Source of the DNA: an uncultured Candidatus Cloacimonadota bacterium
Lineage (GTDB): Bacteria > Cloacimonadota > Cloacimonadia > Cloacimonadales > TCS61
Assembly (NCBI GenBank): GCA_964441785.1
Contig: CAYYLA010000001.1
Span: 9,565-37,559 of the forward strand
DNA length: 27,995 nucleotides
Direction of reading: 5' to 3'
Part shown: positions 3,021-27,995 of the stretch, piece by piece
Position numbering within the stretch: position 1 is the stretch's first letter
Layout of the letters: each line of letters opens with the position of its first letter
Made by a program: the position numbers and the translations under genes
The notes under the pieces: model-generated
Told to the model about the DNA's origin: nothing
What the model saw: the letters and a program-made list of their open reading frames with translations, nothing else
Database searches by the model: none

Positions 3021-3084
3021 GGAATTGCTATCCTGCCTTAATACATTATGATTGGATTAATGTACAGAAGGGGATAGCAATTCC
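3021..3084. other. Long imperfect inverted repeat between gene 1 and the receiver gene (possible terminator or RNA-processing stem)
   Basis: GGAATTGCTATCC (3021-3033) is the exact reverse complement of GGATAGCAATTCC (3072-3084); an inner TACATTA/TAATGTA pair extends the stem. Confidence 0.55.
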
Positions 3085-3095
3085 TGAAATTTATT

Positions 3096-3458
3096 ATGGA
3101 TAGTAAAATAATACTTATCATAGAGGATGAAATTCTCATTGCTTTCGATATTCAAGAATCCTTGAAGATGTCTGGATTTAAGCATATATTTATATTAACA
3201 AACTCAGTAGATGCAATCAGAATAGCTTCGGAGATCAAACCAGATATCATTATATCCGATATCAATATTGATGGTGATCTGGATGGTATTGATACGATCA
3301 GGTGTATCAGAGAACATGTAGATTCACATGTGATTTTTATGACAGCTAACAATTGTGATGATTGTCGTAGAAGAGCATCGGAGCAAGGGATGTTGGGCTA
3401 TTTCTTAAAACCACTGCATGTTCCGGAACTTTGCAATTTTGTATTGGGTTTATTTTGA
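3096..3458 (+). CDS. Single-domain response regulator (CheY-like receiver)
   Basis: IIEDE acidic pocket, IIISDINI phosphoacceptor strand, MTA and KP motifs; 120 aa with no output domain. Confidence 0.88.
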   Translation: MDSKIILIIEDEILIAFDIQESLKMSGFKHIFILTNSVDAIRIASEIKPDIIISDINIDGDLDGIDTIRCIREHVDSHVIFMTANNCDDCRRRASEQGMLGYFLKPLHVPELCNFVLGLF

Positions 3459-3646
3459 TCTTACTTCACCAGTATATCCGCAGGTTGAAAATTATTTTAT
3501 CACAATATAATAAATGTCTAACCTTTGATATTTAAAGCGAATCTAAGCTATTATAGACAGTTTAACTTCTACTGAAAGACTCTTGTTGATTATTCAAATT
3601 ATAATCGCTCAATTCAGGTTAAAAGTCTCCTGTAAAAATCTGATTC

Positions 3647-8013: not shown

Positions 8014-8027
8014 TCAAATTTTGGGCA
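8011..8027 (+). promoter_or_regulatory. Candidate enhancer (UAS) motif TGATCAAATTTTGGGCA
   Basis: 17-mer pseudo-palindrome starting 136 nt before the -24 GG at 8147; 14/17 identical to 13758-13774 and 13/17 to 10260-10276. Confidence 0.45.
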
Positions 8028-8145
8028 TGATATTCATTTATTAGACAAAATAAATAATTTTGTCACATCTGAGATTTTTTGAAACATGATGTAACTCTTT
8101 TAATGGCAAATAGATGTCTTTGAATTAATATTTTCTTTTATCACT

Positions 8146-8161
8146 TGGAACAAGTCTTGTT
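8146..8161 (+). promoter_or_regulatory. Sigma54-type promoter (-24/-12)
   Basis: TGGAACAAGTCTTGTT: GG at 8147-48 with GT (variant of GC) exactly 12 nt later; upstream of the receiver and kinase 2 genes. Confidence 0.55.
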
Positions 8162-8184
8162 TATAAATTATCATGAGGGATGTT

Positions 8185-8535
8185 ATGAAAACAAAAATCA
8201 TGATAGTAGATGATAATATTTTAAGCTTAGACAGTATCTATCTGTCGCTAAAAAGCCATGGCTTTGTCGTAAGCACATTTTCATCACCATTAAAAGCATT
8301 AAGTGCTTTTGCCAATGAGCGTTTTGATGCGGTATTGAGTGATTACTACATGCCGGAGATGCGCGGAGATGAGCTGTTAAACAAGATCAAGAGTATCGAT
8401 CCAGATGTGAAGACATTCCTTTTTTCCGGTTATATTTCATCCAGCATTATGGAAAATCTGGATCTCGAGATAGCTGGAACTTTCCTGAAAAAACCCCTTG
8501 ATATAACACAAATTATCATGGCTCTGGAAGATTGA
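8185..8535 (+). CDS. Single-domain response regulator (CheY-like receiver)
   Basis: IVDDN, VLSDYYMP, FSG and KKP motifs. ATG 8185 preferred over 8173 because GAGGGA (8175-80) lies between the two. Confidence 0.88.
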   Translation: MKTKIMIVDDNILSLDSIYLSLKSHGFVVSTFSSPLKALSAFANERFDAVLSDYYMPEMRGDELLNKIKSIDPDVKTFLFSGYISSSIMENLDLEIAGTFLKKPLDITQIIMALED

Positions 8536-8586
8536 TTCTCTTGCTTCCATAAATTCAATTGTCAAAACCTGATCCAAAAGTAAAAT

Positions 8587-13964: not shown

Positions 13965-16250
13965 ATGATTCCCGGAAAAAAGATAATTTTAATCATAACG
14001 ATTTTGATTGCGATGGCTGGTTTAAGTGCACAAACAGTCCTTGTATGGAATAATGAGATCGCTTCATTTCATTTTACCGATCCCGAAACCGAAAATCAGG
14101 TTGGTGGAGAATATGGTATTACACAAGCGTTAGAAGTAAACAATGTTAACTATCAGATGGAGGACACATTACCTCAGGATTTATCAGGGTTTGATGCGAT
14201 TATCGTACTCTGTGGATCCTGGTGCGTTTCCTGAGGGTGGACAGCGCCAGGCACCGTGAGTGCTGCTGATCAAAACCTCTTGGTAGATTTTATTAATTCT
14301 GGAAAAGGTGTTTATTGGGAAGGTACAAATATTGCCTCTGATCATGAATCCACAACCCTGTGGAATATGTTTGGAGCATCCAATGTAGGTACAGGCCCCG
14401 ATAACGGTGATGTTGTAAACTTAATTGGTAATGCTAACACCTTTGCCGATGGCTTAACATTTGGATATTCACCCTATGGTGAGTATTCCAATGCCAGGGT
14501 GAATCGGCTCAATGTAACAGATGGTACTGCTTTATTGGATTCTGATAACAGTTTCACCAGGGTAGTTTATAACGATACCGGAGCGGGTAGGGTTATTGCT
14601 TCAACTATCATTTTTGGCGGAATTTATAACGAAGATGTTGTAAGTACAAGAAGTAATCTTATGGCATCCTATCTTTCCTATCTTCTTAATATTGATATTC
14701 CAGTTGCCTGGACTTCTGAGGAGATGATTGATTTTGAAACACTATTGCCTGGTACTGAGACAATGCAAACACTTTATCTGAGAAACCTTGGTATGGAGAT
14801 GCTTGAATTGTCTGATATTCAGCTTAGTGGTTCAAATTTTGTCTATCAGGGTGAAGAGAGTTACAGTTTAGATTTTGGACACTATGTTGAGTTACCGGTT
14901 ATTTTTCCCTGTGATGTAGAGGGAGAATTTTCCGAAATACTTTCCATTAACACAAATGATCCTGATAATCCGTTGATAAATGTTTCGGTTACTGGTAGTT
15001 GTTATAGTGCTCCTCAGATCTCTGTTGATGCCAGTGATTTCAACGTGTCAGTTGGGATGGGCAATAGTATGGAGACATCTCTAACCATATCAAATACAGG
15101 TGGTGGTTATCTCGATTATTATATAGAAACCCTCAATGTTACACGGGGAAGCGGTGGTCCCGATAACTTTGGATATACCTGGATCGATAGTAATGATCCT
15201 GAAGGCCCGGTTTATGAATGGTTTGATATCTCAACCATTGGCATTGATGGCGAATTATCTGGTGTTGATGATTATATTACAGTAGAACTACCAATACCAT
15301 TTCCTTTCTATGGAGAAATGCGTAGTGAGATCAAGATATCAACAAACGGATATCTGACCTTTGGCAATGATCCGGTAGATCACTCTAATGATCCTATCCC
15401 ATTTGCCATGGACCCTAACGATTATATTGCTGCTATCTGGGATGATCTTCGTACAGGCGGTGAAAGTATGCTCTACACCTATTTTGATGAAGATAGCAAC
15501 CGCTTTGTTATCCAATATCAGGATTGGAAATTCTACACTGGTGGCGGTACTGGTGACCTTGATTTCCAGATACAACTTTATCCAAATGGAGATATTTTCT
15601 ATTACTACGATAATCTGGAAGGTAGCCTTACCAGCGCTACTGTTGGTATCGAAAATCAAGATGCCAGCGATGGACTCCAGATTGTTTATAATAATGAGTA
15701 TCTGGAAAATCAGTTGGCTGTTAAAATCTCACCCAATCCAACCTGGATGGAACTCGATAATTATTCCGGATCTGTATTTCAGGATGAACCCGTCACTATC
15801 GGTATAAATGTTGATGCATCCAACCTGAATGAGGGTGTTTATAATGCCTTAATTAAAATTCATAATTCCGATGAAGATAATGATTTGATCGAGATACCAG
15901 TAGAATTAACAGTAACTGCTACAGCTTCTGAGGATGAAATTATCCCCCATATACCTGCATTAAATCAAAATTATCCCAACCCTTTCAACCTCACAGCTGC
16001 CGGTCGTGGACCAGTTACAACGATTGATTTCTTTATCCCTGATGATGGGATCTCTGCTGATATCGTGGTTTATAATATGAAGGGGCAGGCGATAGTGACA
16101 TTGGCTCGTAATCAGTATGAAAGAGGTTACTATAGTGTTCACTGGGATGGTAAAGATAGCACTGGAAATGAAGTCAGCGCTGGAATATATTTCTATAAAT
16201 TAACAACAGACAGACATAGCCAGACTAAGAAAATGATTCTAATGAAGTAA
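13965..16250 (+). CDS. Secreted multidomain selenoprotein B (761 aa with Sec90 at TGA 14232-14234): signal peptide, CxxU alpha/beta domain, Ig-like domains, NIDO-like domain, FlgD-Ig sorting domain
   Basis: ORFs 13965-14234 and 14256-16250 are in frame with 7 sense codons between them: VLCGSWCVS-TGA-GWTAPGTVSAADQNLLVDFINSGKG. AGGAG RBS before 13965 and none before 14256; SECIS-like hairpin; paralog of A (shared TRGSGGPDNFGYxWxDSN...GPVYEWFDIS). Confidence 0.9.
14250..14264 (+). other. Putative bacterial SECIS element for TGA 14232
   Basis: GGCAC-[CGTGA]-GTGCT; stem at +16, loop G at +22; compensatory A-T pair where A and C have T-A. Confidence 0.8.
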
Positions 16251-16292
16251 ATAAGGTTCCTTATGAAAATGGTTTGGAAGCAGGGAGTAGAA

Positions 16293-16607
16293 ATGAATCT
16301 GATAGAAGATCTTGCTCAGATAGGATTAACGCTTAATGAATCCAAGGTTTATCTGTCTCTACTGAAAGGTGAACAGTTTTCGGCTGCTCAGTTGGCTAAA
16401 GAGTCAAAGATAAATAGAACAAAAATCTACTGTGTTCTTGGGAATTTGATGAAGCGGGGATTTTGTGAAGAAGTACCAGGAAGGGTAAGGATGTTTCGTG
16501 CGATGGATCCAAAAATCGCAATGAATAAATTAATAAGTTTACATGAAAATAATCTGAAAACAGCGGTTCGGGTAACCGAGATTTTAGCGAGAAGTTTTCA
16601 GACTTAA
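16293..16607 (+). CDS. TrmB-family winged-helix regulator, DNA-binding domain only
   Basis: LAQIGLTLNESKVYLSLL...AAQLAKESKINRTKIYCVLGNLMKRGF...FRAMDP; GGGAG RBS favours ATG 16293 over 16263. Confidence 0.8.
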   Translation: MNLIEDLAQIGLTLNESKVYLSLLKGEQFSAAQLAKESKINRTKIYCVLGNLMKRGFCEEVPGRVRMFRAMDPKIAMNKLISLHENNLKTAVRVTEILARSFQT

Positions 16608-16621
16608 GGAAAGGAGCAGAA

Positions 16622-17074
16622 GTGAAACGAACAATTAATCTATTAGTGTTGGTAGTAATGCTGGTAATTTCTCAACTTTTACTGGCAGATGGGATGGAAC
16701 CGGAAGCGTTAAAGAAAGATGAGGTAAAAATTGTAACGTTATCTGTTGAAAATGGCATATTGCAGGCTCATTACATGATCCCTGAAGATATGCATCAGAC
16801 ATTACAGGAAGACTACTTTTATCTTGATGTTGAACATGGTGATGGTGTAGTTTTTGAAGAAACTGTCTATCCCGAAGGTCATGTAGATGAAGATGGATAC
16901 ATAAATTTTGAAAAGGAAGTTACCTTAACTAAGTCCTTTAAATTATTAGATAATGCTAAACCGGAAGATGTTAAAATTACTGTGTATGCTGGCTATCAAT
17001 ACTGTTACGAAACATATTGTGAACCTCCTGTTGAGGTTGAATTTGAGATAAATCTTACTGAGGGCAAAAAATAG
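16622..17074 (+). CDS. Exported protein resembling the DsbD N-terminal Ig-like domain
   Basis: Signal peptide; beta-rich body with IPEDMHQ; terminal YQYCYETYCEPP cysteine pair positioned like the nDsbD QGC...CYPP motif. Confidence 0.65.
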   Translation: MKRTINLLVLVVMLVISQLLLADGMEPEALKKDEVKIVTLSVENGILQAHYMIPEDMHQTLQEDYFYLDVEHGDGVVFEETVYPEGHVDEDGYINFEKEVTLTKSFKLLDNAKPEDVKITVYAGYQYCYETYCEPPVEVEFEINLTEGKK

Positions 17075-17083
17075 GGGATAACT

Positions 17084-17236
17084 ATGAAGCTTAAGAAATT
17101 TCTCACATTTTGGATGCCATTGATCATCATCGTACTGGCAATCAATTTTATTCTTATGGGTATTGGAGTGGAAGAGTTTCCCGAAATGGCAAGCAAGGCA
17201 ATTAATCTTTGCCTGGGCTGAATCGGGTTAGGGTAG
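17084..17236 (+). CDS. Small membrane selenoprotein (50 aa with Sec46 at TGA 17219-17221), CD1871A-like CxxC family with CxxU; absent from the ORF track
   Basis: MKLKKFLTFWMPLIIIVLAINFILMGIGVEEFPEMASKAINLCLG-TGA-IGLG-TAG. GGGGA RBS before 17084. The C-terminus matches the family pattern KAxxxCxxCIGxG and the gene sits directly before a 4Fe-4S binding protein; hairpin downstream of the TGA. Confidence 0.85.
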
Positions 17237-17247
17237 GTGGAACCTAT
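17233..17247 (+). other. Putative SECIS element for TGA 17219, overlapping the TAG stop and the next start region
   Basis: GTAGGT-[GGA]-ACCTAT, 6 bp including one G-T pair; first loop G at +18. Confidence 0.6.
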
Positions 17248-18115
17248 GAAGAAAAAAATCAACCTTTTCAGTAGAAACAAGATCAGACTGTTTGTCCTGT
17301 TTCTGGCACTTTTTGTTATCAATGGTCATTTCTATGTAAAATATTACGAAGGAGTGATGGAGATTCTTAAGCATATTCCATTGCCTGTGTTAAATTGTTA
17401 CTCTTCTCCGTCAACTGTCTGGGCTTGTCCTATTGGTTTGTTGCAACACTTCATTGTTATTGGATCTTTTTCCTTTGCAACTCTGGGCATTTTACTGTTG
17501 ATTGGAGCCTTTATCGGGCGATGGGCTTGTGGGTGGCTCTGTCCTTTTGGTTTTCTGCAGGAAGCATTATATCATATTCCAACCAGAAAATTTAAATTAC
17601 CTATGTGGACGAAATATATCAAATACGTTATCTTTGTGGCAGGTGTGATAATCTTACCGATGTTTTTAAAGAATGAGATAGGTATGACGGAGACCTGGTT
17701 CTGCAATTTCTGTCCGGCCGGTTGTCTCGAAGCGGGTATCCCTGTTCCTATTATGGATCCCAGTCTGAGATATCTCATCGGGACAATGTATTGGATAAAA
17801 ATTGCAATATTGATTTTGGTTGTGATTATCCCAAGTATTTTTATAAAACGACCTTTCTGCTCGATTATCTGCCCGCTTGGAACTTTGATGGGGGTCTGTA
17901 ATTCATTCAGTTTCTTGAAGCTTCGTTTTGACAGGAGTAAGTGTGTCGATTGCGGATTATGTTCTACCGATTGCCCCATGGGTTTAAATCCAACTACAGA
18001 TTATGGCTCTCCTGAATGCATCCTTTGCATGAACTGTACTAAAGAGTTTTGCAGTGCCATAAAACCAGAATTTAATAATAAATTTGTTGAAAGAAAAAAA
18101 GAGATAAAGGAGTAA
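17246..18115 (+). CDS. NapH/MauN/RdxA-like polytopic membrane 4Fe-4S binding protein
   Basis: Hydrophobic helices; WACPIG, RWACGWLCPFG, FCNFCPAG, PFCSIICPLG; ferredoxin motifs CVDCGLCSTDCP and CILCMNCTKEFC. Start is ATG 17246 or GTG 17237. Confidence 0.88.
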   Translation: MKKKINLFSRNKIRLFVLFLALFVINGHFYVKYYEGVMEILKHIPLPVLNCYSSPSTVWACPIGLLQHFIVIGSFSFATLGILLLIGAFIGRWACGWLCPFGFLQEALYHIPTRKFKLPMWTKYIKYVIFVAGVIILPMFLKNEIGMTETWFCNFCPAGCLEAGIPVPIMDPSLRYLIGTMYWIKIAILILVVIIPSIFIKRPFCSIICPLGTLMGVCNSFSFLKLRFDRSKCVDCGLCSTDCPMGLNPTTDYGSPECILCMNCTKEFCSAIKPEFNNKFVERKKEIKE

Positions 18116-18658
18116 ATGATGAGAAAACTACTGATGTTAATGTCGATAATGATTCTGATGACAGGGTTGCTCTCTGCAAGTGAATCGGAAATGAAGGTGA
18201 TACCTGATTTTTCTCTTAATGATATTGATGGTAATGAGGTAAACCTCTATACTATTTTAGATGAAGGTAAATATGTTGTGATAGATTTTTGGGCTACCTG
18301 GTGTGTGCCCTGCTGTAAAGCCCTACCTCATTTAAATACATTCCACGAAAAATATGATGATGTTGTTGTTATCGCTATATCCGAAGATAGCAAACGCATG
18401 GCGAAAAAAGCATCAGCTTATATCAAGGGATTGGATTACTCTTTTATTACCTTACTGGATCCAAAGGGTGAAGTTAAGAAACTTCTTGATGTTGATGTAC
18501 TTCCTGAAACATTTTATGTAAGACCTGATAAATCAGTAGCCTGGAGACATTTTGGATACAAGAAGGGCGAAGAGATAAGTATGGAAGAAGAATTGGTTAA
18601 AATGCTTGAAGAAAATAAAATTCCTGCTCAAAGTTCCGAAGCAGATGTTCAAAAATAG
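18116..18658 (+). CDS. Exported TlpA-family thiol-disulfide oxidoreductase
   Basis: Signal peptide; PDFSLNDIDG, VIDFWATWCVPCCKALP, VLPETFYV (cis-Pro loop). Confidence 0.92.
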   Translation: MMRKLLMLMSIMILMTGLLSASESEMKVIPDFSLNDIDGNEVNLYTILDEGKYVVIDFWATWCVPCCKALPHLNTFHEKYDDVVVIAISEDSKRMAKKASAYIKGLDYSFITLLDPKGEVKKLLDVDVLPETFYVRPDKSVAWRHFGYKKGEEISMEEELVKMLEENKIPAQSSEADVQK

Positions 18659-18669
18659 TGGAGTTGGAA

Positions 18670-19761
18670 ATGAAGAAAATTTTTATGTTAATACCTGTCA
18701 TTATTATGCTGATGGTTGGATGCGAATTACTGGATCATGATCCTTTTAACGATCAGAAAATTGAGGAAATGTTTGATGAATTCTCGGCTGCATTCTCTAC
18801 GATTTCTGCTGATGATGTGTCTGATGTAATGGTATTCTATGATCAGGATTACTTTCATGATTTACAGGATGTTTACGGTAGAGAAGAATTTTATCTCTCT
18901 CTGTTTCAAAGCTATGGTGAAGATATTACCTTTGAATGCTATCTGACAGATTATAAAGAGAACCTGGAAATTGAGTGGGTTCTTGGTGTAAACTATGAGG
19001 TAGACGGTATTCAAATGGTAGAAAACTTTGAATTTGTTGAGTATCTAAAAGATAACAACGGTGAGTACTATTTCTATGGAAATCAGGTAAATCCTCCAGC
19101 TTTGGATCCAGATAAACCAATCGTTTTTGTTGAATATGGTACAGCAGAAAATTGTGGTAATTGTCCTCCAGCATCATCCGAATTGCATCACATGCAATTG
19201 GAACATGGTGCTCAGTTTATTTATGTAACCTATTGCGCTGGTGAACCAATGAGTACCTATATCGATTTTGCCACTTATTATAACGAAACAGCTCAACCTG
19301 TTACAATTTTCGGCGGTCAATATAAGATTGTTGGTGCTTCAGAAGACGATTTAGCAGAGTTTGATCAACGCTATAATCAAGTATTATCAGGGACACCTGA
19401 AGCATTCCTGTCCAATATTACCTGGAGTGATGATGGAGAGATGATTGATGGTACTGTTGATGTCGATTTGCAGGGTGTATCTACGGCTAATCTTGTTTTG
19501 ATGGCTGCACTTGTTGATGAACGACCCGAACTATATTACGATAATGGTGGCAACAGAATCTACAATGTGCTTTTTGCTGTTGGTGAGGAACAGGTAGGTG
19601 GCTCAGGAACTGCAGAATTCAGAATTGAATATGATCTGCCAAGCTATTCTGATACAATGCCTGCTACAACAAAATTAATTGTCTGGCTGCAAACTAAGGA
19701 TGCCAATTATAATCCTGATACCTGTAAAATCCATACAGCAGCTGAAATAGATCTATTTTAA
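18670..19761 (+). CDS. Lipoprotein with an N-terminal NTF2/SnoaL-like segment and an Omp28-like thioredoxin domain (CGNC)
   Basis: Lipobox LMVGC; VFVEYGTAENCGNCPP; QPVTIFGG; C-terminal Ig-like region ending LIVWLQ. GGAG RBS favours ATG 18670. Confidence 0.72.
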   Translation: MKKIFMLIPVIIMLMVGCELLDHDPFNDQKIEEMFDEFSAAFSTISADDVSDVMVFYDQDYFHDLQDVYGREEFYLSLFQSYGEDITFECYLTDYKENLEIEWVLGVNYEVDGIQMVENFEFVEYLKDNNGEYYFYGNQVNPPALDPDKPIVFVEYGTAENCGNCPPASSELHHMQLEHGAQFIYVTYCAGEPMSTYIDFATYYNETAQPVTIFGGQYKIVGASEDDLAEFDQRYNQVLSGTPEAFLSNITWSDDGEMIDGTVDVDLQGVSTANLVLMAALVDERPELYYDNGGNRIYNVLFAVGEEQVGGSGTAEFRIEYDLPSYSDTMPATTKLIVWLQTKDANYNPDTCKIHTAAEIDLF

Positions 19762-19770
19762 GGAGTAACG

Positions 19771-20364
19771 ATGAAGAAGTTAGTAATAATTTTAACCCTT
19801 ACAATAATTTCAATAATGTTGAGTGCGGTTGAATTGGGTACTGCTCCCGATTTTCAATTGGAAAATGAACGTGGTGATCAGGTTAAGCTATCTGATTTCA
19901 ATGATAAACTTGTACTATTAGATTTCTGGGCTACCTGGTGCGTTCCCTGCTGTAAAGAATTGCCCCATTTATCCAAACTGCAGGAAAAATATGGTGATGA
20001 TATTCAAGTGCTTGCAATAACAATAGATAAGGCTAGACAGGTTTCCAAGGCTAAAGCTTACGTTAAATCAAATCGTTTCAAATTCATGACGCTTTTCGAT
20101 CCAAAGCAAGAGGTTGCTGCTCTCTACAACATGGTAAATCCTCCTCGTACTCTTCTTATCGATCCCTCTGGTAAAATAATCTTCCAACATGATGGTTATA
20201 AACGCGGAGATGAAGTGCATATTGAAGAAGAAATTGTAAAATGGATTGAAGCAAAATCTATCAAAACTCCTGTTGAAAATGCTGTTGGTGATGGTGATAT
20301 AAAACAACCGGAAACTCCAAAATTTGAGATGAAAAAAATGGAACAAACAAAGGGTGAGAAATAA
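19771..20364 (+). CDS. Second exported TlpA-family thiol-disulfide oxidoreductase
   Basis: Signal peptide; APDFQLENERG, LLDFWATWCVPCCKELP, NPPRTLLID. Confidence 0.92.
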   Translation: MKKLVIILTLTIISIMLSAVELGTAPDFQLENERGDQVKLSDFNDKLVLLDFWATWCVPCCKELPHLSKLQEKYGDDIQVLAITIDKARQVSKAKAYVKSNRFKFMTLFDPKQEVAALYNMVNPPRTLLIDPSGKIIFQHDGYKRGDEVHIEEEIVKWIEAKSIKTPVENAVGDGDIKQPETPKFEMKKMEQTKGEK

Positions 20365-21830
20365 TGAAAAAGATAATATTAATTACACTCTTGTTAATTG
20401 TTGGATCTATTTTGCTGGCTGATGACTTTTCTATCAGTGGTATCAATGAAGCACACTATGTCTATAAAAGCGCTGAAGATTCACTTAATCAATATTTCCA
20501 GGATAAATTTAAATTCTTACTGCAATATAATGATTTTCGCTTTGGTATGACCTATGTAGGCGAATTCCCAAAATATCGTAAATTTGAACCATTGGCAGAA
20601 TTGGATCCATCCAACCTGCATAATGAGTGGGAAGAACGTTATGTGGAATTTAACACAGGCGAATATATGGTTAAAGCAGGTAATTTCGATGCCCTTATTG
20701 GATCAGGTATGATATTGCATGCCTACTATAACGAAGATCTTGATGAGGATTATCGACTCGATGGTTTCTATGGACGGGTTGTTAAAGATGCCTGGTCGCT
20801 ACAGGCTTTTCATGGTATTTTGCCAACCGAAGATGCCTCTTTTGAAGCAGATGATGTTATCAATGGTGCCGATCTGGAGATAACGCCTATCGCTCCATTA
20901 ACTCTTGGATTTGCCGCTCTCTCTAATCAGGAATATCAAGGGGCTGATAATTATAATTACAGCATTAGAGAAGTGATATCCGGGCGAATGGGATTCTATC
21001 ATGACTATTTTGAAGTAAATGCCGAATATGCTGAAAGTAAACAGTATCATAATGAATTCGGTGGTACAAAATACGGCAACGCTTTCTACTCTGATTTGAA
21101 TGTTTATGCTGGTATGTTTACAGTTACAGGTGCTTATAAAAACTATGATAAATTTGTGCATCGTCTTAATGAACTTCCAACCGTAAATCACAGTGAAGAA
21201 CCATTGGTGGATTATGGATATGATGTAGGTTCAGGTGAAGAAGGTTATATGGCTGTGGTTAGATTCGTGCCAAATTTCGAGAATGAACTGGTTGTTAATT
21301 TTGCCAACGGTTGGTCTAAAGATGATACCATTGAACAGATTGATATTCATGCCGAATATCGTAGAGATTTTGAATCCTTTACGCTTATCACAGAATATAG
21401 CCATCTGGAAAACACCTGGGAGATAGATAATGTAAACTATTGGGCACAGGAAATGACTCCAAAAATCAGTGTGGATTTCTTATTAGGCGATATGCCAACT
21501 ATGCTTAAAGCTGAATATAAGATAGAAAAACATGAGGAATATACCCATATCAGTGAAGAGACCATAAAGTACGAACCAACACTTCAGGCTGATATCGGTA
21601 TCAAGCAATACGCAATATCTCTGTTGGCAAGTTATCACTATCTTGATGGTGAAGATATCAATGCGAATACTCCTAAAATCGGGGTTGAATTTGTAGCTCC
21701 TTTATGGAATCATACTGAACTTAAACTCTTTGCCGGTAGCGAAAAGGGTGGTCTTGTCTGCCGTAACGGTGTTTGTAATTATCAGGCTCCTTTCGAGGGT
21801 GCACGAATAGATCTTACTACAAGATTTTAA
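20364..21830 (+). CDS. Outer-membrane beta-barrel protein, DUF6029-like, with a C-terminal cysteine pair
   Basis: Signal peptide; alternating amphipathic strands; GNFDALIGSGMIL; terminal KGGLVCRNGVCNYQAPFEGARIDLTTRF ending in an aromatic residue. Confidence 0.7.
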   Translation: MKKIILITLLLIVGSILLADDFSISGINEAHYVYKSAEDSLNQYFQDKFKFLLQYNDFRFGMTYVGEFPKYRKFEPLAELDPSNLHNEWEERYVEFNTGEYMVKAGNFDALIGSGMILHAYYNEDLDEDYRLDGFYGRVVKDAWSLQAFHGILPTEDASFEADDVINGADLEITPIAPLTLGFAALSNQEYQGADNYNYSIREVISGRMGFYHDYFEVNAEYAESKQYHNEFGGTKYGNAFYSDLNVYAGMFTVTGAYKNYDKFVHRLNELPTVNHSEEPLVDYGYDVGSGEEGYMAVVRFVPNFENELVVNFANGWSKDDTIEQIDIHAEYRRDFESFTLITEYSHLENTWEIDNVNYWAQEMTPKISVDFLLGDMPTMLKAEYKIEKHEEYTHISEETIKYEPTLQADIGIKQYAISLLASYHYLDGEDINANTPKIGVEFVAPLWNHTELKLFAGSEKGGLVCRNGVCNYQAPFEGARIDLTTRF

Positions 21831-21850
21831 ATATAATTAATGAGGTTAAA

Positions 21851-22900
21851 ATGAAGAAAATTTTCTTAACTTTAATTGTGCTTGCATTTGCTCTTTTATC
21901 TGCAACACAGCTAAATGTTATCAGTGAACTGTTTACTGTTATTCCCGATTGTTGATGTATTGATGACTACGCTCGTGTAGCGTTGGACGACTATGCTTTA
22001 CAAGCTCCCCATGCTATACCGTTGTGGTGGAGTATGGAGTCCGAAATGCCATCACCAATGGCTGAAGAACGTTTTACTCTCTATCAGGGTGAGAATACTC
22101 CGCACGCATTTTTTGGTCGTATCGAAGAGGTTGACGCATGGAATTGTATGGATTATGTTAACTTCTGTAGTGCCTATGATGCTGTCGCCAGTAATACAGC
22201 TTATGCTGAGATTGATCTCGATTTTTATTCTACTTCTGCTGGCCAATATTCGGTTGCTGCAGAGGTAAATCTTGTAGAAGATGTTATAACGACAAACAAC
22301 AAAATATTCTTTGTAATAGTTGGAAAACTAACTGGAGAATCTCGTGACCCGGGATATTGGAATAATCGCGTTATCGCTGCCTCTGAATCTCAGGATTTCT
22401 CACTTTTAACAAGCGGTGAAACAGCCTCTTTTTCAGCAGATTTTGCCCTCGACCTTTCTGACTATGCTGACCATGGAGCTTATGAAGAGGAATACCTGCA
22501 CGCTGTTGCTATTATCCAATCCTATGATAATCTGATGATTCTTCAAAGTGAGATTGTACAGTTCGGTCTGTCTGATTCGCCTGACTCTGACATTGTTCCA
22601 GCTAATGTTTCTTTGAAACAGAACTGGCCTAATCCCTTTAATCCAGCACAAACAGGTCGTGGCCCTGCAACAACGATAGAATTTACAACCAGAAAAGCTG
22701 CATCAACAGAACTCTCTATCTATAACCTGAAAGGACAAAAAGTGATAACATTGGTTAATCAAAATCTTGAAGCTGGGGATTATTCATATTCATGGTCTGG
22801 TAGTGATGATAATGGACATGAGGTTAGCTCGGGTGTTTATTACTATATCTTAAAATCAGCCGAATCCGTCGAAACCAGAAAAATGCTTTTAATGAAATAA
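21851..22900 (+). CDS. Secreted Omp28-like thioredoxin-fold selenoprotein (349 aa with Sec35 at TGA 21953-21955, Cys-Sec-Cys motif) with FlgD-Ig sorting domain
   Basis: GAGG RBS then MKKIFLTLIVLAFALLSATQLNVISELFTVIPDC-TGA-CIDDYARVAL, in frame with ORF 21983-22900. TPHAFFG cis-Pro loop; C-terminal NWPNPFNP...RKMLLMK; hairpin follows the TGA. Confidence 0.85.
21969..21983 (+). other. Putative SECIS element for TGA 21953
   Basis: ACGCT-[CGTGT]-AGCGT, perfect 5 bp; loop G at +20. Confidence 0.72.
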
Positions 22901-22911
22901 AATGAAAGGAA

Positions 22912-22945
22912 TCAGCCATCGCTGGCTTCTTCCAGTGATGGCTGA
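22912..22945. other. Strong hairpin between the Omp28-like gene and arsR (terminator-like or operator)
   Basis: TCAGCCATCGCTGG-CTTCTT-CCAGTGATGGCTGA, 14 bp with one G-T pair; no U-tract. Confidence 0.6.
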
Positions 22946-22953
22946 CATTGATT

Positions 22954-23253
22954 ATGAATATTGAAGATAAAAAAAGATTCTCTAAGATGGCTGAAATCAG
23001 TAAAGCTCTGGCTCATTCCTCCAGATTGTTTATTCTACATAAACTTGATGCTCAGGAACTTTGTGTTAAAGAGCTTGCTCAATTGATTGGATCAGATATC
23101 TCTACTGTATCAAAACACCTTGCTCAATTGAAAAATGTTGGTTTAGTTACAGATGAAAAACGCGGTAATTGCGTCTATTACCATCTGCAATGTAGGTGTG
23201 TATTGAATATTTTCAGTTGTGTAGAGAATGTAATATCAGCCACTCGGGAATAA
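22954..23253 (+). CDS. ArsR/SmtB-family transcriptional regulator
   Basis: KALAHSSRLFIL...ELCVKELAQLIGSDISTVSKHLAQLKNVGLV...RGNCVYYHL; Cys-rich tail CRCVLNIFSC. Start is ATG 22954 or TTG 22948. Confidence 0.93.
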   Translation: MNIEDKKRFSKMAEISKALAHSSRLFILHKLDAQELCVKELAQLIGSDISTVSKHLAQLKNVGLVTDEKRGNCVYYHLQCRCVLNIFSCVENVISATRE

Positions 23254-23270
23254 AAAAAATTTAAAGAACG

Positions 23271-23296
23271 TTTGGCTATTTGCGCAATAAGCCAAA
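23271..23296. promoter_or_regulatory. 26-bp near-perfect palindrome upstream of ccdA (candidate operator)
   Basis: TTTGGCTATTTGCGCAATAAGCCAAA matches its reverse complement at 22 of 26 positions and ends just before the GAGGTG RBS. Confidence 0.5.
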
Positions 23297-23309
23297 TAGA
23301 TGAGGTGTT

Positions 23310-24017
23310 ATGTTAACGTTATTTGAAGAACTTACTTTGGCCCTTTATGGAAACCCTGGTGTTGCTTTGGCCGCTTCACTTCTTTGGGGCATTCTCAGTA
23401 TTCTTATCAGCCCTTGCCACCTTGCTGCAATCCCCCTGGTCGTCGCTTTTATCAATGATCAGAAGGAGATAACAACCGGTAAGGCATTCAGGATTTCCTT
23501 TATGTTTTCTCTGGGAATCTTGATAACCCTGGTTGCTGTTGGTCTGATAACGTCTCTCACAGGCCTGATTCTTGGAAGTACCGATATGATAATGCGCATC
23601 GTTATCAGCATCGTGTTACTATTTGTCGGTTTATACTTTCTTGGAGTGGTCCCATTACCCGATTTTGGTGGTGTATCCAATAAACGAATGTCCAGGAATC
23701 CCTATGTTAGTGGGTTAATCCTGGGTCTATTTTTTGGGATTGCTCTTGGACCTTGTGCCTTCGCATTTATGGCACCAATTCTGGGGATTGTGATGCAGAA
23801 TATTGAAACGGGATTTCTATTTTCTATAGCTCTTCTGGTCATGTTTCTGATTGGACATTGTGGTGTTTTGATATTGGCTGGAACCTTTACAAGATTGGTG
23901 AAGCAATTTCTCGCTTGGGATGCTGCCGCAAAGGGCACACTCATTATCAGAAAAATCTGTGGAATTCTAATTATTATCGGAGCAGTTTACACCTTTGTTA
24001 AAGCTGTTCATTTTTAG
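23310..24017 (+). CDS. ccdA: CcdA/DsbD transmembrane electron transporter
   Basis: Six hydrophobic segments; ISPCHLAAIP and ALGPCAFAF, the two conserved PC motifs. Confidence 0.9.
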   Translation: MLTLFEELTLALYGNPGVALAASLLWGILSILISPCHLAAIPLVVAFINDQKEITTGKAFRISFMFSLGILITLVAVGLITSLTGLILGSTDMIMRIVISIVLLFVGLYFLGVVPLPDFGGVSNKRMSRNPYVSGLILGLFFGIALGPCAFAFMAPILGIVMQNIETGFLFSIALLVMFLIGHCGVLILAGTFTRLVKQFLAWDAAAKGTLIIRKICGILIIIGAVYTFVKAVHF

Positions 24018-24033
24018 AAGACAAAAGAAAAGA

Positions 24034-24103
24034 GAAAAAAGAAAAAAGAAAAAAGAATAAAGAATAAAGAATAAAGAATAAAGAATAAAGAATAAAGAAT
24101 AAA
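24034..24103 (+). repeat. Intergenic heptamer tandem repeat (GAAAAAA)3(GAATAAA)7
   Basis: Counted directly: three GAAAAAA units at 24034-54 followed by seven GAATAAA units at 24055-103. Confidence 0.95.
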
Positions 24104-24142
24104 GGTTAAGCCTTGTATGTTTAGAAGTAAAAGGAGAAAATA

Positions 24143-24382
24143 ATGGATATAAAAATTCTAGGAACCGGATGTCCAAAATGCAATAAGCTTGAGAAAAATG
24201 TCAGGAAAGCTGTGGAAGAAATTGGATTAGATGCAGAGATTACAAAGATTTCTGATCTGGAAGAGATAATGAGTTTTGGTGTAATGATGACGCCTGGTTT
24301 GGTAGTAGATGGAGAACTGAAATCTTCGGGAAAATTATTAAAACCGAAAGATATAACAAAATTATTGAAGGATAAATTATAA
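24143..24382 (+). CDS. Small cytoplasmic thioredoxin-like protein (MTH895-type redox-active disulfide protein)
   Basis: MDIKILGTGCPKC...GVMMTPGLVVDG; AAGGAG RBS. Confidence 0.92.
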   Translation: MDIKILGTGCPKCNKLEKNVRKAVEEIGLDAEITKISDLEEIMSFGVMMTPGLVVDGELKSSGKLLKPKDITKLLKDKL

Positions 24383-24777
24383 TGAAAAAGATCATAATTA
24401 CAGTGTTTCTCGCTGTCTTTGCTTTTCTCTTGTTTGGATCGGAAACCATGGTTGGAAAAGCTGATACCACTTCTGTTTCAACAACAATCACGTTTATAGA
24501 ACTTGGATCAATAACCTGTGTACCCTGTAAGCAGATGGAAAAAGTGTTAGAAGCAACGGAAGAGAAATATGGCGATCAGATTGAAGTAATATTCTATGAT
24601 ATCATGAAAGATCGATCAAAATCTAAAGAGTACAATGTTAGGATAATGCCGACCCAGGTTTTTCTTAATAGTGATGGAAAAGAGATTCATCGTCATATTG
24701 GATACTATCCACAGAAGCAATTAGATGAATTTCTGCAGAAACAGGGATTAATTCCTCTGGAGAATAATGATGAATAA
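24382..24777 (+). CDS. Exported thioredoxin-family protein
   Basis: Signal or anchor peptide; FIELGSITCVPCKQM; VRIMPTQVF; HIGY. Confidence 0.9.
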   Translation: MKKIIITVFLAVFAFLLFGSETMVGKADTTSVSTTITFIELGSITCVPCKQMEKVLEATEEKYGDQIEVIFYDIMKDRSKSKEYNVRIMPTQVFLNSDGKEIHRHIGYYPQKQLDEFLQKQGLIPLENNDE

Positions 24778-25678
24778 ACTGATTGCGGTTGTGTTAGTTT
24801 TTCTTGCGATCAGTTGCATGTTAGATGCGCACGAAATAGCTCTGCACTATGCTCTTGAAGGAACCGAAACCTATGGTGGTGATGAGATAAGGGGATGGGA
24901 AGTAGATTTTTTAACCCTGGATTGGGGTGATAATGATTTCTCTGATTATGGTGTAACTGTTAAATTTACATTCAGTAAATCAGATGTCTCAAAAATTGTC
25001 TTAACCAAAGGTTGGAAACGATTTGATTTAGGAAAAAACTGGAATCTTACTGTGGGTAAACAACAATATGGTTTCGGATTATTCAGTGGCTCCGGTTGTG
25101 GATGAGGTGGTTCGGGATCCGTGGGATCCGGCTGCGTGAGTTATTATTCATTTAAACAGTTGATTGCAGATGCTGATTTTAACCTTAAAGTGGATAAACA
25201 GATTGGTGATCTCAATGGTCAGATTTATATTGGACATACCCTGAAAGAGGAAGCTGCTGTCGGTTCCAGAATTTCCTGGGATTTTAACAATCTTGAATTA
25301 GGTGTTGCAGCACTTTGGCTCGATTATCAGGATGAAGAACAACAGCTGACAAACTATGAATTTGATCTGCAATATACCTTGCCAAAATACATAAATGTGA
25401 AAACTCAAATTGGTAATATCGATGATGGTAATAATGATACAGATGACTTAAACTTTTTTTGTCTGATTCAAAAGGATGAACCATTTTACATCCCATTTGT
25501 AAAAGAGATCATTCCCTATGCTGGTATCTCCACAAGAGATGAAATGAAAGAAAATAGTGTAATAATGGGACTGAACTTTTCACCTGTAACTGATGCGTAT
25601 ATCAAAATAGAACATGTGCTGGATTCCAGCGAAGATGTCGATCCCAGGAGCGATATTCAGGTCGGTTACACGTTCTAA
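24770..25678 (+). CDS. Outer-membrane beta-barrel selenoprotein (about 302 aa, Sec at TGA 25103-25105) with a Gly/Ser-rich C-G-U...C loop
   Basis: ORFs 24767-25105 and 25121-25678 are in frame with 5 sense codons between them: GKQQYGFGLFSGSGCG-TGA-GGSGSVGSGCVSYYSFK. Signal peptide only on part 1; terminal beta-signal DIQVGYTF only on part 2; hairpin follows the TGA. Confidence 0.85.
25115..25129 (+). other. Putative SECIS element for TGA 25103
   Basis: GGATC-[CGTGG]-GATCC (6 bp if C-G closes a GTG loop); loop G at +16. Confidence 0.72.
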
Positions 25679-25820: not shown

Positions 25821-27995
25821 ATGCGAGTTAGGATTTTTTTGTGTTTGTTATTGATCTTATCAGTGTTAACCCTTTGGGGAGAAGCAATAGTCTGGGAAGC
25901 TGATTTTGCCAGTCAGGAAACGGAATGGCAACTGGATGAAAACTGGATGAATGCCGGTGATTATCTTGTACTGAACTGGTCTCCTGCAATTATCGATTAT
26001 GATTTATCTGCTATATCGCCAGAGATCGAACTACCTGAAGATACAAATGAGTTAACAGTCTCTCAATGGATTTCCGAATATATGACCAATGAAGGTGAGT
26101 ATGCCGAAATCAATATATTGTCCGATGGGAATTCCACAAATATCTGGTCATTGGAGTTAGATGGAACTGACTGGGGTGTTATGGACGGTGAAGAATTAGC
26201 ATTGGATATTAGTGCTTTTTCCAACACAACAATTCAGATTGAATTCAGAAGCTTTGGATCATCAACCTTTAACTTCAATTATTGGTATCTATATGGGATG
26301 CAGATAGAAGCCTTTCTCGATCATGATGTCAGTGCTGTCTCAATCTCAGGAACCTCATCAATGTTTGTTAACGAAGAGGGTAACTGGACCGTTACTGGTA
26401 TGAATTCCGGTTTATTTGAAGAGAATGATGTTCAGGTTTCGTTGATGAATGGTGATACAGAGATTTCTACAATTGCTGTGGAAGGTCCGCTGGCGGTTGG
26501 TGAAGAGTTCAATCTCGATTTCACCTGGACTCCAACTGAGGATCAGGTTGCGTTGCTGCGAGGAGTAATAACTATGCCGGGGGATGAATATCTATCCAAT
26601 AATGAGACAGAGCCATTTCTGGTAAATATCTATCCAGAGGATGCGATTGTCGCTTTGATCTGGGATAATGATAATGGTTCTTATGTGGGAGCTACAGGTA
26701 CAGAGGAATATCTGGAACAGGTTTTAGATGAAGCTAATATTATCTATGAAACATCTCTAAGTTTGCCACAGGATCTTTCATCCTACGATGCGATTTTTAT
26801 TGCCCTTGGCGTTTATTGCGTGGGCTGAGGTGTAACCCCTCCCGGCTCTGTAGGAGCTCAAGAACAAATCCGTTTAATTGATTTCGTAAATAGTGGTAAA
26901 GGTCTCTATATAGAAGGTTCTGATTTTGCTGCTTCCCATCAGGGAACTGATTTTTTCAACCTTTTTGGATGTGATTTGACTAATAATGAGACAGGAGATG
27001 TCGGCACATTACAAGGTCAGATTGGTACAATGGTTGATGGTATGAACTTTGACTTCTCAAACGGGATGGATGAAAACTATTCGGTTGATGGATTATCGGC
27101 AAATGATGGGACGATGCTGTTTACTTCAGGTCTCTACGGCAGAGTTGTAATGAATTCTGCTCAGGGTGGACGAACCATCTGCTCTACTCCTGTGTTGGGA
27201 GGATACATAGAAAATGGTGATAATTCCCATCTGAATCTTTTCCAGCAATATCTGACCTATCTAGTTGATCCTGAAGCATCTGCCATGATTCCATCCAACT
27301 TTGCTGCCGAGTTGATCAGCGATGATGTCTACATGGATTGGATGGCACCGGATAATTTGACTGGTCTGCTGGGGTATAATGTCTACAAAAATGGGATGTT
27401 ACTAAACAGTGAAGTAGTTGAGGAAGCCGAATATGTCGAAGAAAATATTGATTATGGAGTACATTCTTATTGGGTTACTGCAATCTATGAAGGTGATGTA
27501 GAAAGTAACTCTTCGAATCATGCAACTATCGTTTATTCCGATCCCACCAGTGGCTATGCTCTCGACTTTGATGGGATTACCTCCGAGGTTGTTGTTACCG
27601 ATGCTCCAGATTTAAATCCAACCGAACAGATTTCGGTAGAAGCATGGGTTAAATTAGCTGGAATCACAAGCCTTCCTTCCATTGTCAGTAAAGAGGATTG
27701 GAGTACAGGTGAAACGGGGTATGTATTAAGAATTGATGATTTTGTTAATACAAATACGCCCCAATTTCAAATAGGGACAGCGCAGGGTTGGATAGCAGCC
27801 AGTGCTCCGCTGGGGTCTATACCTTTTGATACCTGGACGCATGTAGCAGGAACCTATGATGGATCCAATATTAAAATCTATATTGATGGTGAACTGGAAG
27901 GGACCCAACCTTGCTCCGAAACAATTAACATCTCTCCTATAGATTTAAGAATCGGTGGGCATATGGAAGGATCTAACAGGTACTGGAATGGTGTG
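25821..27995 (+). CDS. Secreted multidomain selenoprotein C, 3'-partial (Sec336 at TGA 26826-26828): signal peptide, adhesin-like domain, CARDB-like Ig, CxxU alpha/beta domain, FN3-like, LamG/concanavalin-like domain
   Basis: IALGVYCVG-TGA-GVTPPGSVGAQEQIRLIDFVNSGKGLYIEG; by my translation the frame stays open from 26829 to the window end (…MDWMAP…GYNVY…YWVTAIY…; YALDFDG…ISVEAWVK…WTHVAGTYDGSNIKIYIDG). The ORF track does not list this part. Confidence 0.9.
26844..26858 (+). other. Putative SECIS element for TGA 26826
   Basis: GGCTC-[TGTAG]-GAGCT; stem at +16, loop G at +22. Confidence 0.8.

Follow-up and report, generated by a model that had tools for sequence, protein, structure and literature searches.

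A redox-rich gene run of an uncultured Cloacimonadota bacterium very probably comprises two separate reductive pathways of the cell envelope

To our knowledge, all known routes of reducing power into the bacterial envelope use transporters of the DsbD/CcdA type and end in the periplasm. In these systems, exported thioredoxin-fold reductases (TlpA, ResA, or CcmG) draw their reducing power from a thiol-disulfide transporter in the membrane, and the clients are cytochromes, Sco, and Msr. We analyzed a run of 14 genes, all on the plus strand, that occupies positions 16293-25678 (about 9.4 kb) of a 27,995-nucleotide stretch of DNA from an uncultured Candidatus Cloacimonadota bacterium, the whole of which is called the window below. 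The run resembles the DsbD/CcdA and TlpA pathways: one part of it, unit B, encodes a CcdA transporter with cytoplasmic and exported thioredoxins, and most orthologues of the other part, unit A, encode a DsbD in which the N-terminal (nDsbD), transmembrane, and C-terminal (cDsbD) domains are fused. It departs from them in that the clients would be outer-membrane barrels and Omp28-like secreted proteins, and in that unit A of the window possesses a selenopeptide, an Fe-S membrane protein, and a TlpA instead of the membrane and C-terminal parts of DsbD.

Several other described systems share components with this locus. The CcdA-Etrx-MsrAB2 system of Streptococcus pneumoniae is similar in concept, as CcdA supplies surface thioredoxin-fold lipoproteins, but this organism is Gram-positive and has no outer membrane, barrels, or selenocysteine (Sec, U in motifs). 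The Fer4_5 polyferredoxins NapH, MauN, and NosR possess, like the Fe-S protein of the window, four transmembrane segments, two CX3CP motifs, and two C-terminal 4Fe-4S motifs; however, the window protein reached only about 35 bits against the cut-offs of 213-1000 for the NapH/NosR equivalogs, and no NapG, NapC, or nos context accompanies it. HBP35, Omp28, and the Omp28-related selenoprotein family NF045500 are, like the Omp28-like proteins of the window, thioredoxin-fold proteins exported through type IX secretion (T9SS) or anchored by a lipid in bacteria of the Fibrobacteres-Chlorobi-Bacteroidetes (FCB) group, although the secreted copy of the window has CUC instead of UxxC. HBP35 of Porphyromonas gingivalis is a T9SS cargo with thioredoxin activity and thus a precedent for a surface thioredoxin (PMC4674972). 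A dedicated reductant-supply operon for HBP35 or Omp28 was not described in the literature that we found. The likeness of the window barrels to the OmpF/OmpC porins and to Wzi/usher-like barrels is one of fold, and we know of no characterized porin with a Sec or redox motif in loop L3 or with an operon-linked thioredoxin. NCBIfam already names the family of the selenopeptide and that of the Omp28-related selenoproteins, and the steps in the inner membrane and periplasm follow the DsbD/CcdA-TlpA logic; the possibly new mechanisms within the locus are an importer made of an Fe-S protein and a selenopeptide, and redox-active outer-membrane barrels.

The 14 genes very probably belong to two separate reductive envelope pathways. 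Unit A (16263-22900, plus strand) leads from a TrmB-family regulator through nDsbD, a CLGU peptide, a Fer4_5 protein, a TlpA, an Omp28-like lipoprotein, a second TlpA, and a DUF6029 barrel to an Omp28-like T9SS selenoprotein. Unit B (22948-25678, plus strand) contains genes for an ArsR regulator, CcdA, an MTH895-type thioredoxin, an exported thioredoxin, and a Sec-containing porin. The gaps between genes range from -11 to +17 nucleotides across 16263-22900 and from 47 to 125 nucleotides around the ArsR and CcdA genes, and a terminator-like hairpin stands 3' of the CUC gene and 5' of the ArsR gene. The features of the two units are the following:

16263-16607, plus strand: TrmB-family helix-turn-helix regulator (Pfam TrmB, 65.8 bits), 114 amino acids, DNA-binding domain only
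16622-17074, plus strand: stand-alone exported nDsbD-like domain with CYETYC (Pfam DsbD_N, PF11412)
17084-17236, plus strand: 50-amino-acid single-pass membrane selenopeptide ending in CLGUIGLG (Sec, TGA at 17219-17221)
17237-18115, plus strand: Fer4_5 membrane 4Fe-4S protein, a polyferredoxin (Pfam Fer4_5, PF12801, 52.3 bits, cut-off 22)
18116-18658, plus strand: exported TlpA/ResA-like thioredoxin no. 1 with WCVPCC (Pfam AhpC-TSA, Redoxin, Thioredoxin_8)
18658-19761, plus strand: Omp28-like lipoprotein with CGNC (weak match to NF033782, Omp28, of about 20 bits; faint match to DUF1223)
19771-20364, plus strand: exported TlpA-like thioredoxin no. 2 with WCVPCC (Pfam AhpC-TSA, Redoxin, Thioredoxin_8); its stop overlaps the DUF6029 start
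20364-21830, plus strand: DUF6029 outer-membrane beta-barrel with CRNGVC (Pfam PF19494, 64.1 bits, cut-off 27)
21848-22900, plus strand: secreted Omp28-like selenoprotein with CUC (TGA at 21953-21955), a T9SS type A C-terminal domain, and a weak NF045500 match
22912-22945, plus strand: terminator-like hairpin of 14 bp with 8 GC pairs and a weak T tract after the stem, between units A and B
22948-23253, plus strand: ArsR/SmtB-family regulator (NF033788, 80.6 bits, cut-off 55) with a C-terminal Cys cluster
23310-24017, plus strand: CcdA-type membrane thiol-disulfide transporter with SPC and GPC (Pfam DsbD_TM, PF02683, 32.7 bits, cut-off 27.1)
24143-24382, plus strand: cytoplasmic MTH895/ArsE-type thioredoxin-like protein with CPKC and no signal peptide (TIGR00412, 108.5 bits, cut-off 62)
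24382-24777, plus strand: exported thioredoxin with CVPC (Pfam Thioredoxin, Thioredoxin_2)
24767-25678, plus strand: 16-strand porin-like barrel with CGU (TGA at 25103-25105) in the Gly-rich insert GSGCGUGGSGSVGSGC, in the loop between strands 5 and 6 (the L3 position)

A redox-type Cys/Sec motif was found in 12 of the 14 genes and a motif of the CxxC type in eight; none of the five plus-strand genes upstream of the run carries the latter type. The density of motifs is thus above chance, all the more so because they occupy the conserved positions of their families. All eleven motifs listed in the original prediction were found on the plus strand where it had placed them, but position 16293, given there as the start of the run, is the second Met of the TrmB open reading frame (ORF), which itself opens at 16263.

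For comparison, an alignment of DUF6029 proteins was used to collect 80 loci from species-representative genomes, every named one of which is from Cloacimonadota, and 21 query proteins were mapped onto these loci by tblastn (individual loci carry L numbers below). Upstream counts refer to the 51 loci with at least 4.5 kb upstream of DUF6029 and downstream counts to the 56 loci with at least 3 kb downstream. About 80 Cloacimonadota species retain the core of unit A, namely a reductant importer, the Omp28-like lipoprotein, TlpA, DUF6029, and secreted partners, and WOR-3 and TA06-like genomes retain most of it. This conservation of the gene neighborhood, which had been proposed as a check, lends comparative support to the general idea of an envelope-spanning reductive system with redox-tagged barrels. 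However, homologues of CcdA, the MTH895-type thioredoxin (thioredoxin_3), the exported thioredoxin, and the porin were found near DUF6029 in none of the 80 loci, and ArsR in two, on the opposite strand. The loci L091 and L092, whose Fer4_5 proteins are 76% and 68% identical to that of the window, respectively, possess unit A without unit B beside it, and in the metagenome-assembled genome (MAG) GCA_046482725.1 the two units are on separate contigs. These results, together with the hairpin and the second regulator between the units, do not support a single continuous chain, as originally proposed. Nor is CcdA the membrane half of a "split DsbD", since unit B is absent from the related DUF6029 loci, and as most orthologous operons hold a complete DsbD, nothing is split across the two units.

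The main argument for the function of the inner-membrane part of unit A comes from these orthologous operons. A fused DsbD (nDsbD-transmembrane-thioredoxin) was found in 47 of the 51 loci at the slot that the peptide, Fer4_5, and TlpA genes occupy in the window; the Fer4_5 module was found in loci without DsbD, and one or the other was present in all 51. A set composed of a stand-alone nDsbD, a peptide of 40-55 amino acids, Fer4_5, and an extra TlpA occurs in the window and in L001/L006, L004, L005, L007, L008, L079, L091, and L092. Because this set is replaced as a whole by the fused DsbD, the stand-alone nDsbD and the Fe-S membrane protein belong together, in agreement with the original prediction. 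This non-homologous replacement suggests that the peptide and Fer4_5, with TlpA no. 1 standing in for cDsbD, import reducing power, and the pair is probably a functional analogue of the DsbD membrane domain. Separately, a complete DsbD upstream of TrmB was observed in addition to the nDsbD/peptide/Fer4_5 module in L004 (3858-5500) and L091 (6796-8445), showing that both importers can coexist in one locus.

The nDsbD-like domain of the window matched PF11412 over 114 of its 119 profile positions with 25.7 bits against a cut-off of 25, a borderline assignment. When it served as a tblastn query, most loci gave a match at the N-terminus of their fused DsbD. By eye, it resembles the N-domain of the fused DsbD found at the equivalent operon slot in L002 and other loci, with its Cys pair at the same place, spaced as C-x4-C in the window compared with C-x5-C in the fused proteins.

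The selenopeptide was assigned to NCBIfam NF040920 (CD1871A family CXXC) with 33.7 bits against a cut-off of 32 when U was entered as C, and a Clostridium homologue of the peptide scored 63.7 bits. Hydropathy and charge bias predict an N-in, C-out topology. The C-terminus reads CLGUIGLG in the window, L001, and L004, CLGCIGLG in L005, and ULSCIGIG in L007, L008, and L079, and the forms CLECIGIG, CLSCIGIG, CLSCIGIK, CLSCMGLQQ, and CLSCMGIE were found in other phyla (Clostridium, Proteobacteria, Desulfurobacterium, WOR-3, and TA06-like genomes). Sec thus alternates with Cys and swaps its position within the pair, as a redox-active dithiol or selenolthiol would be expected to do.

The Fer4_5 protein belongs to PF12801 and carries two CX3CP and two CxxCxxCxxxC(P) 4Fe-4S motifs. 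Its topology, as predicted from hydropathy and charge, comprises four transmembrane segments with the ferredoxin domain and both CX3CP motifs inside and five conserved Cys in two outside loops, in line with the published topology of NapH. With 36.5 bits against TIGR02163 (cut-off 213) and 31.8 bits against NF007013 (cut-off 234), it lies outside the NapH/MauN models. A total of 772 homologues, about 40-45% identical, were found across phyla, and the protein was always accompanied by a small CxxC/CxxU peptide and, across phyla, also by a TlpA-like redoxin. The trio of peptide, Fer4_5, and TlpA-like redoxin was present in a Clostridium genome and in a proteobacterial MAG, where there is no DUF6029, and an uncalled peptide gene was found just 5' of Fer4_5 in Desulfurobacterium. 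In WOR-3 and in a TA06-like genome, TlpA, DUF6029, the peptide, and Fer4_5 occur together along with Omp28-like and T9SS proteins, and in the TA06-like locus L088 (contig Ga0209636_10004993) the gene of a GltD-like NAD(P)H/FAD/Fe-S protein (Pyr_redox_2/Fer4_20) lies directly 3' of Fer4_5.

TlpA no. 1 accompanies the peptide/Fer4_5 module. Both TlpAs of the window are exported thioredoxin-fold proteins of the TlpA/ResA/DsbE type, with a WCxxC motif and Pfam scores above the cut-offs, and both remain below the equivalog models for ResA, TlpA, and DsbE (best scores 74.6-91.5 bits, cut-off 170). Both were also seen to have a third Cys after the CxxC motif (WCVPCC); this extra Cys appears to be lineage-specific, since the orthologues of L001 and L002 read WCVPCL or WCSPCK.

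Unit A is headed by TrmB. The orthologues of this regulator have 269-274 amino acids with a C-terminal domain, and a full-length one heads the operon in L001, L002, L091, and L092; a query with the C-terminal part found a match in 12 of the 80 loci. The sensor part is truly missing in the window, as the next gene begins 14 nucleotides downstream.

The proposal that outer-membrane barrels are tied to periplasmic thioredoxins was corroborated for both units. A TlpA gene is found directly 5' of DUF6029 in all 51 loci, and about 10 of 61 close DUF6029 homologues, including those of L001, L091, and L092, are TlpA::DUF6029 fusions of 641-651 amino acids. This strict adjacency and the fusions suggest that TlpA works at the barrel. 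The window protein is a DUF6029 member, PF19494 being carried by all 61 homologues, and its C466 and C471, in VCRNGVC, are invariant in 32 of 32 homologues and form part of the best-conserved stretch of the family; in the WOR-3 and TA06-like proteins, the motif reads ICSGGVC.

An AlphaFold2 model of a natural fusion, P0010, had a predicted local distance difference test (pLDDT) score of 89.8 and a predicted template-modeling (pTM) score of 0.85, and consists of a thioredoxin domain that a helix of 23 residues joins to a barrel of about 24 strands. On one side of the barrel the turns have 2-5 residues, whereas the loops on the other reach 29 residues. The last long hairpin, on the side of the long loops, bears the two Cys at its tip, opposite each other across an NG turn. 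From this list of strands and the usual rule for outer-membrane proteins, that short turns face the periplasm and long loops the outside, the CxxxxC hairpin is deduced to be extracellular. If it is redox-active, it would thus face the cell surface, where the T9SS-exported thioredoxin-fold proteins sit. In a Foldseek search, the thioredoxin domain of the fusion superposed on ResA, DsbE, and TlpA with template-modeling (TM) scores of 0.85-0.88, Etrx2 being among the matches, and the barrel gave weak, loose matches to 24-strand ushers. The sole paper found to name DUF6029 likened it to the Wzi barrel by HHpred (PMC9603273). A role in polysaccharide export, which has been suggested in the literature, was considered and rejected in this context, as no OPX, Wzx, or Wzy was present in the neighborhoods seen.

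In unit B, CcdA was identified by its profile match and two membrane-embedded Pro-Cys motifs, and the cytoplasmic protein belongs to the MTH895/ArsE thioredoxin-like family (TIGR00412). No family was assigned to the porin gene, whose Pfam Porin_O_P score of 16 bits is below the cut-off of 20.9. A search with its 190 C-terminal amino acids gave 34 homologues, the closest five being fragments of 163-174 amino acids that start just after the Sec site. The porin sequence alone found no relatives in metagenomes, and a three-sequence alignment then gave four loci. At the Sec site, SCUG is found in L089 and L093-95 and ACCG in P0323/L090, and the porins of L089 and L093-95 have a further Cys about 12-13 residues on, as in the window. 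A homologue of the exported thioredoxin was found directly 5' of the porin wherever upstream DNA exists (L089, L090, and L093-L095), and in L095 a CcdA homologue and another exported CxxC protein precede this thioredoxin-porin pair. The AlphaFold2 model of P0323 (pLDDT 83.3) has 16 strands, with the insert in a disordered loop of 38 residues (98-135) between strands 5 and 6. Its barrel matched OmpC, OmpF, the Rhodopseudomonas blastica porin, and OmpM1 in Foldseek with TM scores of about 0.6, which places it among the general porins. In such porins, the loop at the L3 position lines the pore.

The lipoprotein and the downstream secreted proteins share one Omp28-like domain, for which a profile was made from 20 sequences. 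C19, C22, and P67 (the cis-Pro position) are invariant, and the profile matched the PDB entries 1fo5 (E=1.4e-10), 2ypm (E=1.4e-7), the DUF1223 structure 2axo (E=8.8e-7), and HBP35 5y1a (E=4.6e-5). With its CxxC/UxxC motif, cis-Pro, and profile match, this domain is a thioredoxin-fold oxidoreductase domain, although the lipoprotein as a single sequence gave no match in PDB and only the domain profile revealed the relationship. In 13 genes from 10 loci U is the nucleophile; in the rest it is C. The window proteins reached 20.1 bits against the cut-offs of 150 and 200 for NF033782 and NF045500, and are therefore relatives rather than members of the NCBIfam Omp28 models; the homologues of L002 and L088 scored 28-65 bits, and homologues matched NF045500 and NF033782 at E=1e-12 to 1e-18.

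The lipoprotein was found in 50 of the 51 loci, and in L013 it is a selenoprotein with WUVSC. Downstream of DUF6029, 49 of the 56 loci encode a secreted Omp28-like protein, a small T9SS protein, or both. The CUC protein of the window has a signal peptide upstream of the TGA, the context ELFTVIPDCUC, and a T9SS sorting domain at its C-terminus (TIGR04183, 32.1 bits, cut-off 23). In a MAFFT alignment, its U aligned with the U or C of the family motif W[U/C]xxC; the resolving Cys is replaced by Asp, and Sec has a Cys on both sides. The small T9SS protein, which follows DUF6029 in 34 of the 56 loci, was also observed to carry a Cys pair of its own, C-x4-C in L001 (12060-12782) and C-x9-C in L002 (11515-12252), with a C-x4-U form (WCIGGSUSPPG) in the TA06-like L088 (1692-2414).

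Reading TGA as sense joins split ORFs at four places, 17219, 21953, 25103, and in the flanking T9SS proteins described below. For the peptide, the Omp28-like proteins, and the porin, the in-frame UGA is aligned with Cys or with a position-shifted Sec in homologues and the frame continues beyond it, so that these genes are predicted to encode selenoproteins. Hairpins with G-containing loops were found 12-20 nucleotides after each UGA. For the peptide, the loop is a GGA or GGU triloop, comparison of the window with L004 shows one compensatory pair, and no such hairpin is apparent in the Cys form. Among the Omp28-like genes, Cys homologues possess the hairpin too, a 6-7-bp stem being kept in L014, L018, L025, L031, L045, and L081, and its mean stability was -8.2 kcal/mol in Sec homologues compared with -8.7 kcal/mol in Cys homologues (p=0.78). 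Its presence there is either a relic of a recent Sec-to-Cys change or a side effect of the coding sequence for the conserved A(R/Q)xGL. Folding of single sequences after each UGA gave z-scores near 0, and an Rfam scan of the window gave no match to a curated selenocysteine insertion sequence (SECIS) or other RNA family. None of selA, selB, selC, and selD was found within the window. A gene for SelA (selenocysteine synthase) was seen at 2957-4384 of L088, inside the TA06-like cluster of Omp28-like, TlpA, DUF6029, peptide, and Fer4_5 genes. In addition, same-frame gene pairs across a TGA after CSGU, ISCU, and DSGU were noticed at 1609-3510 and 3732-5693 of L087 and at 4665-5582 of L088, and these may be split T9SS-type selenoproteins.

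On balance, we lean towards the view that the two operons are independent and that each encodes a reductive thiol/selenol pathway that begins in the cytoplasm and has as its end point an outer-membrane barrel marked by a conserved Cys/Sec motif. The data show the family assignments, the interchange of Sec and Cys at the motifs, the conserved gene order, the exchange of DsbD for Fer4_5, the TlpA::barrel fusions, and the barrel folds with the place of the motifs in them; we infer the order of hand-over, which component reduces which, the topology of the peptide and Fer4_5, and any redox role of the barrels. In unit A, low-potential electrons of the cytoplasm would enter the two 4Fe-4S clusters of Fer4_5; the GltD-like flavoprotein gene in one TA06-like relative hints at their donor. 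They would then pass to the CxxU pair of the 50-amino-acid peptide at the outer face of the inner membrane and on to TlpA no. 1 and the stand-alone nDsbD, so that the four genes together would replace a fused DsbD. The use of Fe-S clusters to reduce a disulfide is comparable to ferredoxin:thioredoxin reductase or heterodisulfide reductase, but the likeness is one of principle only. TlpA no. 2, fused to the barrel in some species, would dock on DUF6029, whose invariant CxxxxC hairpin would join in the hand-over, and the end recipients would be the Omp28-like proteins, that is, the lipoprotein (CxxC) and one or more T9SS-exported proteins (UxxC, or CUC in the window). In unit B, under ArsR-type control, the MTH895-type thioredoxin would reduce CcdA, CcdA the exported thioredoxin, and the latter its porin partner with the Cys/Sec loop at the L3 position. 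The flow of electrons would be reductive, given that the Fer4_5 module is replaceable by DsbD and that proteins of the TlpA/ResA type act as reductants.

The barrels themselves have a chance only a little short of even of being direct redox partners of the thioredoxins, and it is doubtful that electrons leave the cell through them. In the most far-reaching form of the model, the barrels would be redox-active conduits, an "outer-membrane DsbD", and the peptide and Fer4_5 an unrecognized Fe-S-driven importer of the inner membrane. DUF6029 with its docked TlpA would pass periplasmic reducing equivalents to the surface T9SS or lipid-anchored seleno- and cysteine proteins, the Sec loop of the porin would act likewise and independently, and the 50-amino-acid CxxC/CxxU peptide with Fer4_5 would be interchangeable with DsbD in several phyla. 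We regard this combination as rather unlikely. No paper was found on these gene associations or on the function of the peptide/Fer4_5 pair.

A number of observations weigh against the proposed pathways. By the topology rules for outer-membrane proteins, the DUF6029 hairpin is extracellular whereas TlpA is periplasmic, so direct contact needs TlpA or a partner inside the lumen, although so wide a barrel could admit a domain or a tether. The Cys pair stands at a tight NG beta-turn, typical of a stabilizing cross-strand disulfide, and a cross-strand disulfide at the tip of a hairpin can be structural only. In the model, the porin's Gly-rich insert with Sec is disordered, and most of the family, including distant full-length homologues, has no insert. 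In the lipoprotein, the lipidated Cys is directly followed by Glu or Asp, and the protein may face either the surface or the periplasm. Finally, the SECIS-like hairpin of the Omp28-like genes does not discriminate between Sec and Cys forms and was dropped as evidence.

Maturation confined to the periplasm also fits and has a modest chance of being correct. DsbD or Fer4_5 would then act through TlpA to keep the Sec/Cys sites of the Omp28-like proteins and the barrel Cys reduced or correctly paired before export or insertion; the barrels would be clients, anchors, or channels, the CxxxxC hairpin would be structural, and no reducing equivalents would cross the outer membrane. Every characterized DsbD/CcdA-TlpA/ResA/CcmG pathway works in this manner, and since the T9SS exports from the periplasm, its cargo passes through the compartment of TlpA. 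However, a dedicated TlpA gene adjoins that of the barrel in 51 of 51 loci, and in about 10 lineages the two are covalently fused, which points to a lasting physical partnership rather than a transient folding step; VCRNGVC is the most conserved stretch of its family, across phyla, and a second, unrelated barrel has its own thioredoxin and a Sec, a residue that is rarely structural.

Reductive capture or uptake is improbable. Here, the barrels would import oxidized sulfur, selenium, or metalloid species or disulfide-bonded substrates that TlpA, thioredoxin, and the porin Sec reduce, with the surface thioredoxin-fold proteins binding the substrate and unit B responding to it via ArsR. ArsR/SmtB regulators indeed sense metalloids or persulfides, the MTH895/ArsE family is named from ars operons, SelA is encoded inside the TA06-like cluster, and both the position of Sec in a pore-lining loop and the width of the DUF6029 barrel would suit such a role. 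Yet none of the genes conserved across the 80 loci encodes a transporter, a reductase, or a metabolic function for such a substrate, and the regulator of unit A is TrmB, which is not a metalloid sensor.

The model of the original prediction, in which split DsbD and CcdA, the Fe-S protein, the TlpAs, and the barrels form one relay that reduces flanking CxxU proteins, is more improbable still. The flanking proteins are:

10566-13364: large T9SS protein with in-frame TGA at 11298 (LYCVGUG)
13965-16250: large T9SS protein with in-frame TGA at 14232 (WCVSUG)
25821-27995, running off the window end: large T9SS protein with in-frame TGA at 26826 (VYCVGUG)

They scored 35.9-41.9 bits against TIGR04183, and their Sec motif reads LG(L/V)YCVGUG(T/V)TPPGSVG or GSWCVSUGWTAPGTV, with a 6-7-bp hairpin of G-first triloop about 17 nucleotides downstream; the domain of about 220 amino acids around Sec gave no Pfam or PDB match. 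Adjacency of all genes on one strand and the three CxxU proteins that flank them speak for a single relay. T9SS proteins adjoining the cluster in the WOR-3 locus L087 may provide a looser link, since, when read by eye without alignment, they appear to share domain types with the flanking proteins, though with CVGIY and no Sec. However, a CxxU domain was found near the unit A cluster in only three of the 80 loci, and the original prediction had itself named a wide occurrence of the cluster without these proteins as an argument against their being clients. The absence of unit B from the 80 loci and from beside unit A in L091/L092, the hairpin and second regulator, and the complete DsbD of most operons also contradict one relay. 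The conserved secreted neighbors of the cluster are instead the Omp28-like thioredoxin-fold proteins, with Sec or Cys, and the small T9SS protein. Further upstream in the window, positions 4907-10257 encode two histidine kinases, one of them with tetratricopeptide repeats (TPR), and two response regulators, one sigma-54-dependent and the other of a single domain; this signaling block was not found beside the related clusters examined.

A classical TlpA/ResA/CcmG role in the maturation of cytochrome c or of copper centers (Sco/CoxB) is extremely improbable: although the TlpAs score best against the ResA, TlpA, and DsbE models and the thioredoxin domain of the fusion superposes on those structures, the scores are far under the equivalog cut-offs, no CxxCH motif occurs in any window gene, 10 of the 2352 long ORFs in the window and the 80 loci (1.13 Mb around the loci) have one CxxCH and none has two or more, and no ccm, ccs, or ctaC-type families were found among the genes scanned. 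Cytochrome c maturation was thus excluded as far as sequence allows, and the family assignments and the CxxCH scan bear out the earlier view of reductive thiol-disulfide pathways without a cytochrome c role.

These results provide a first context for DUF6029, the CD1871A peptide family, and the Omp28-like (seleno)proteins of bacteria with a T9SS, and suggest how anaerobic fermenters of proteins and amino acids might handle extracellular disulfides or oxidants. They offer two testable extensions of the known pathways, an Fe-S protein with a mini (seleno)peptide in the place of DsbD, and barrels tied genetically or covalently to periplasmic thioredoxins. If the barrels are passive, the locus would still represent a phylum-wide, well-defined envelope reductase regulon with several new selenoproteins; if they are conduits, it would endow an anaerobe with a continuously recharged extracellular disulfide reductase.

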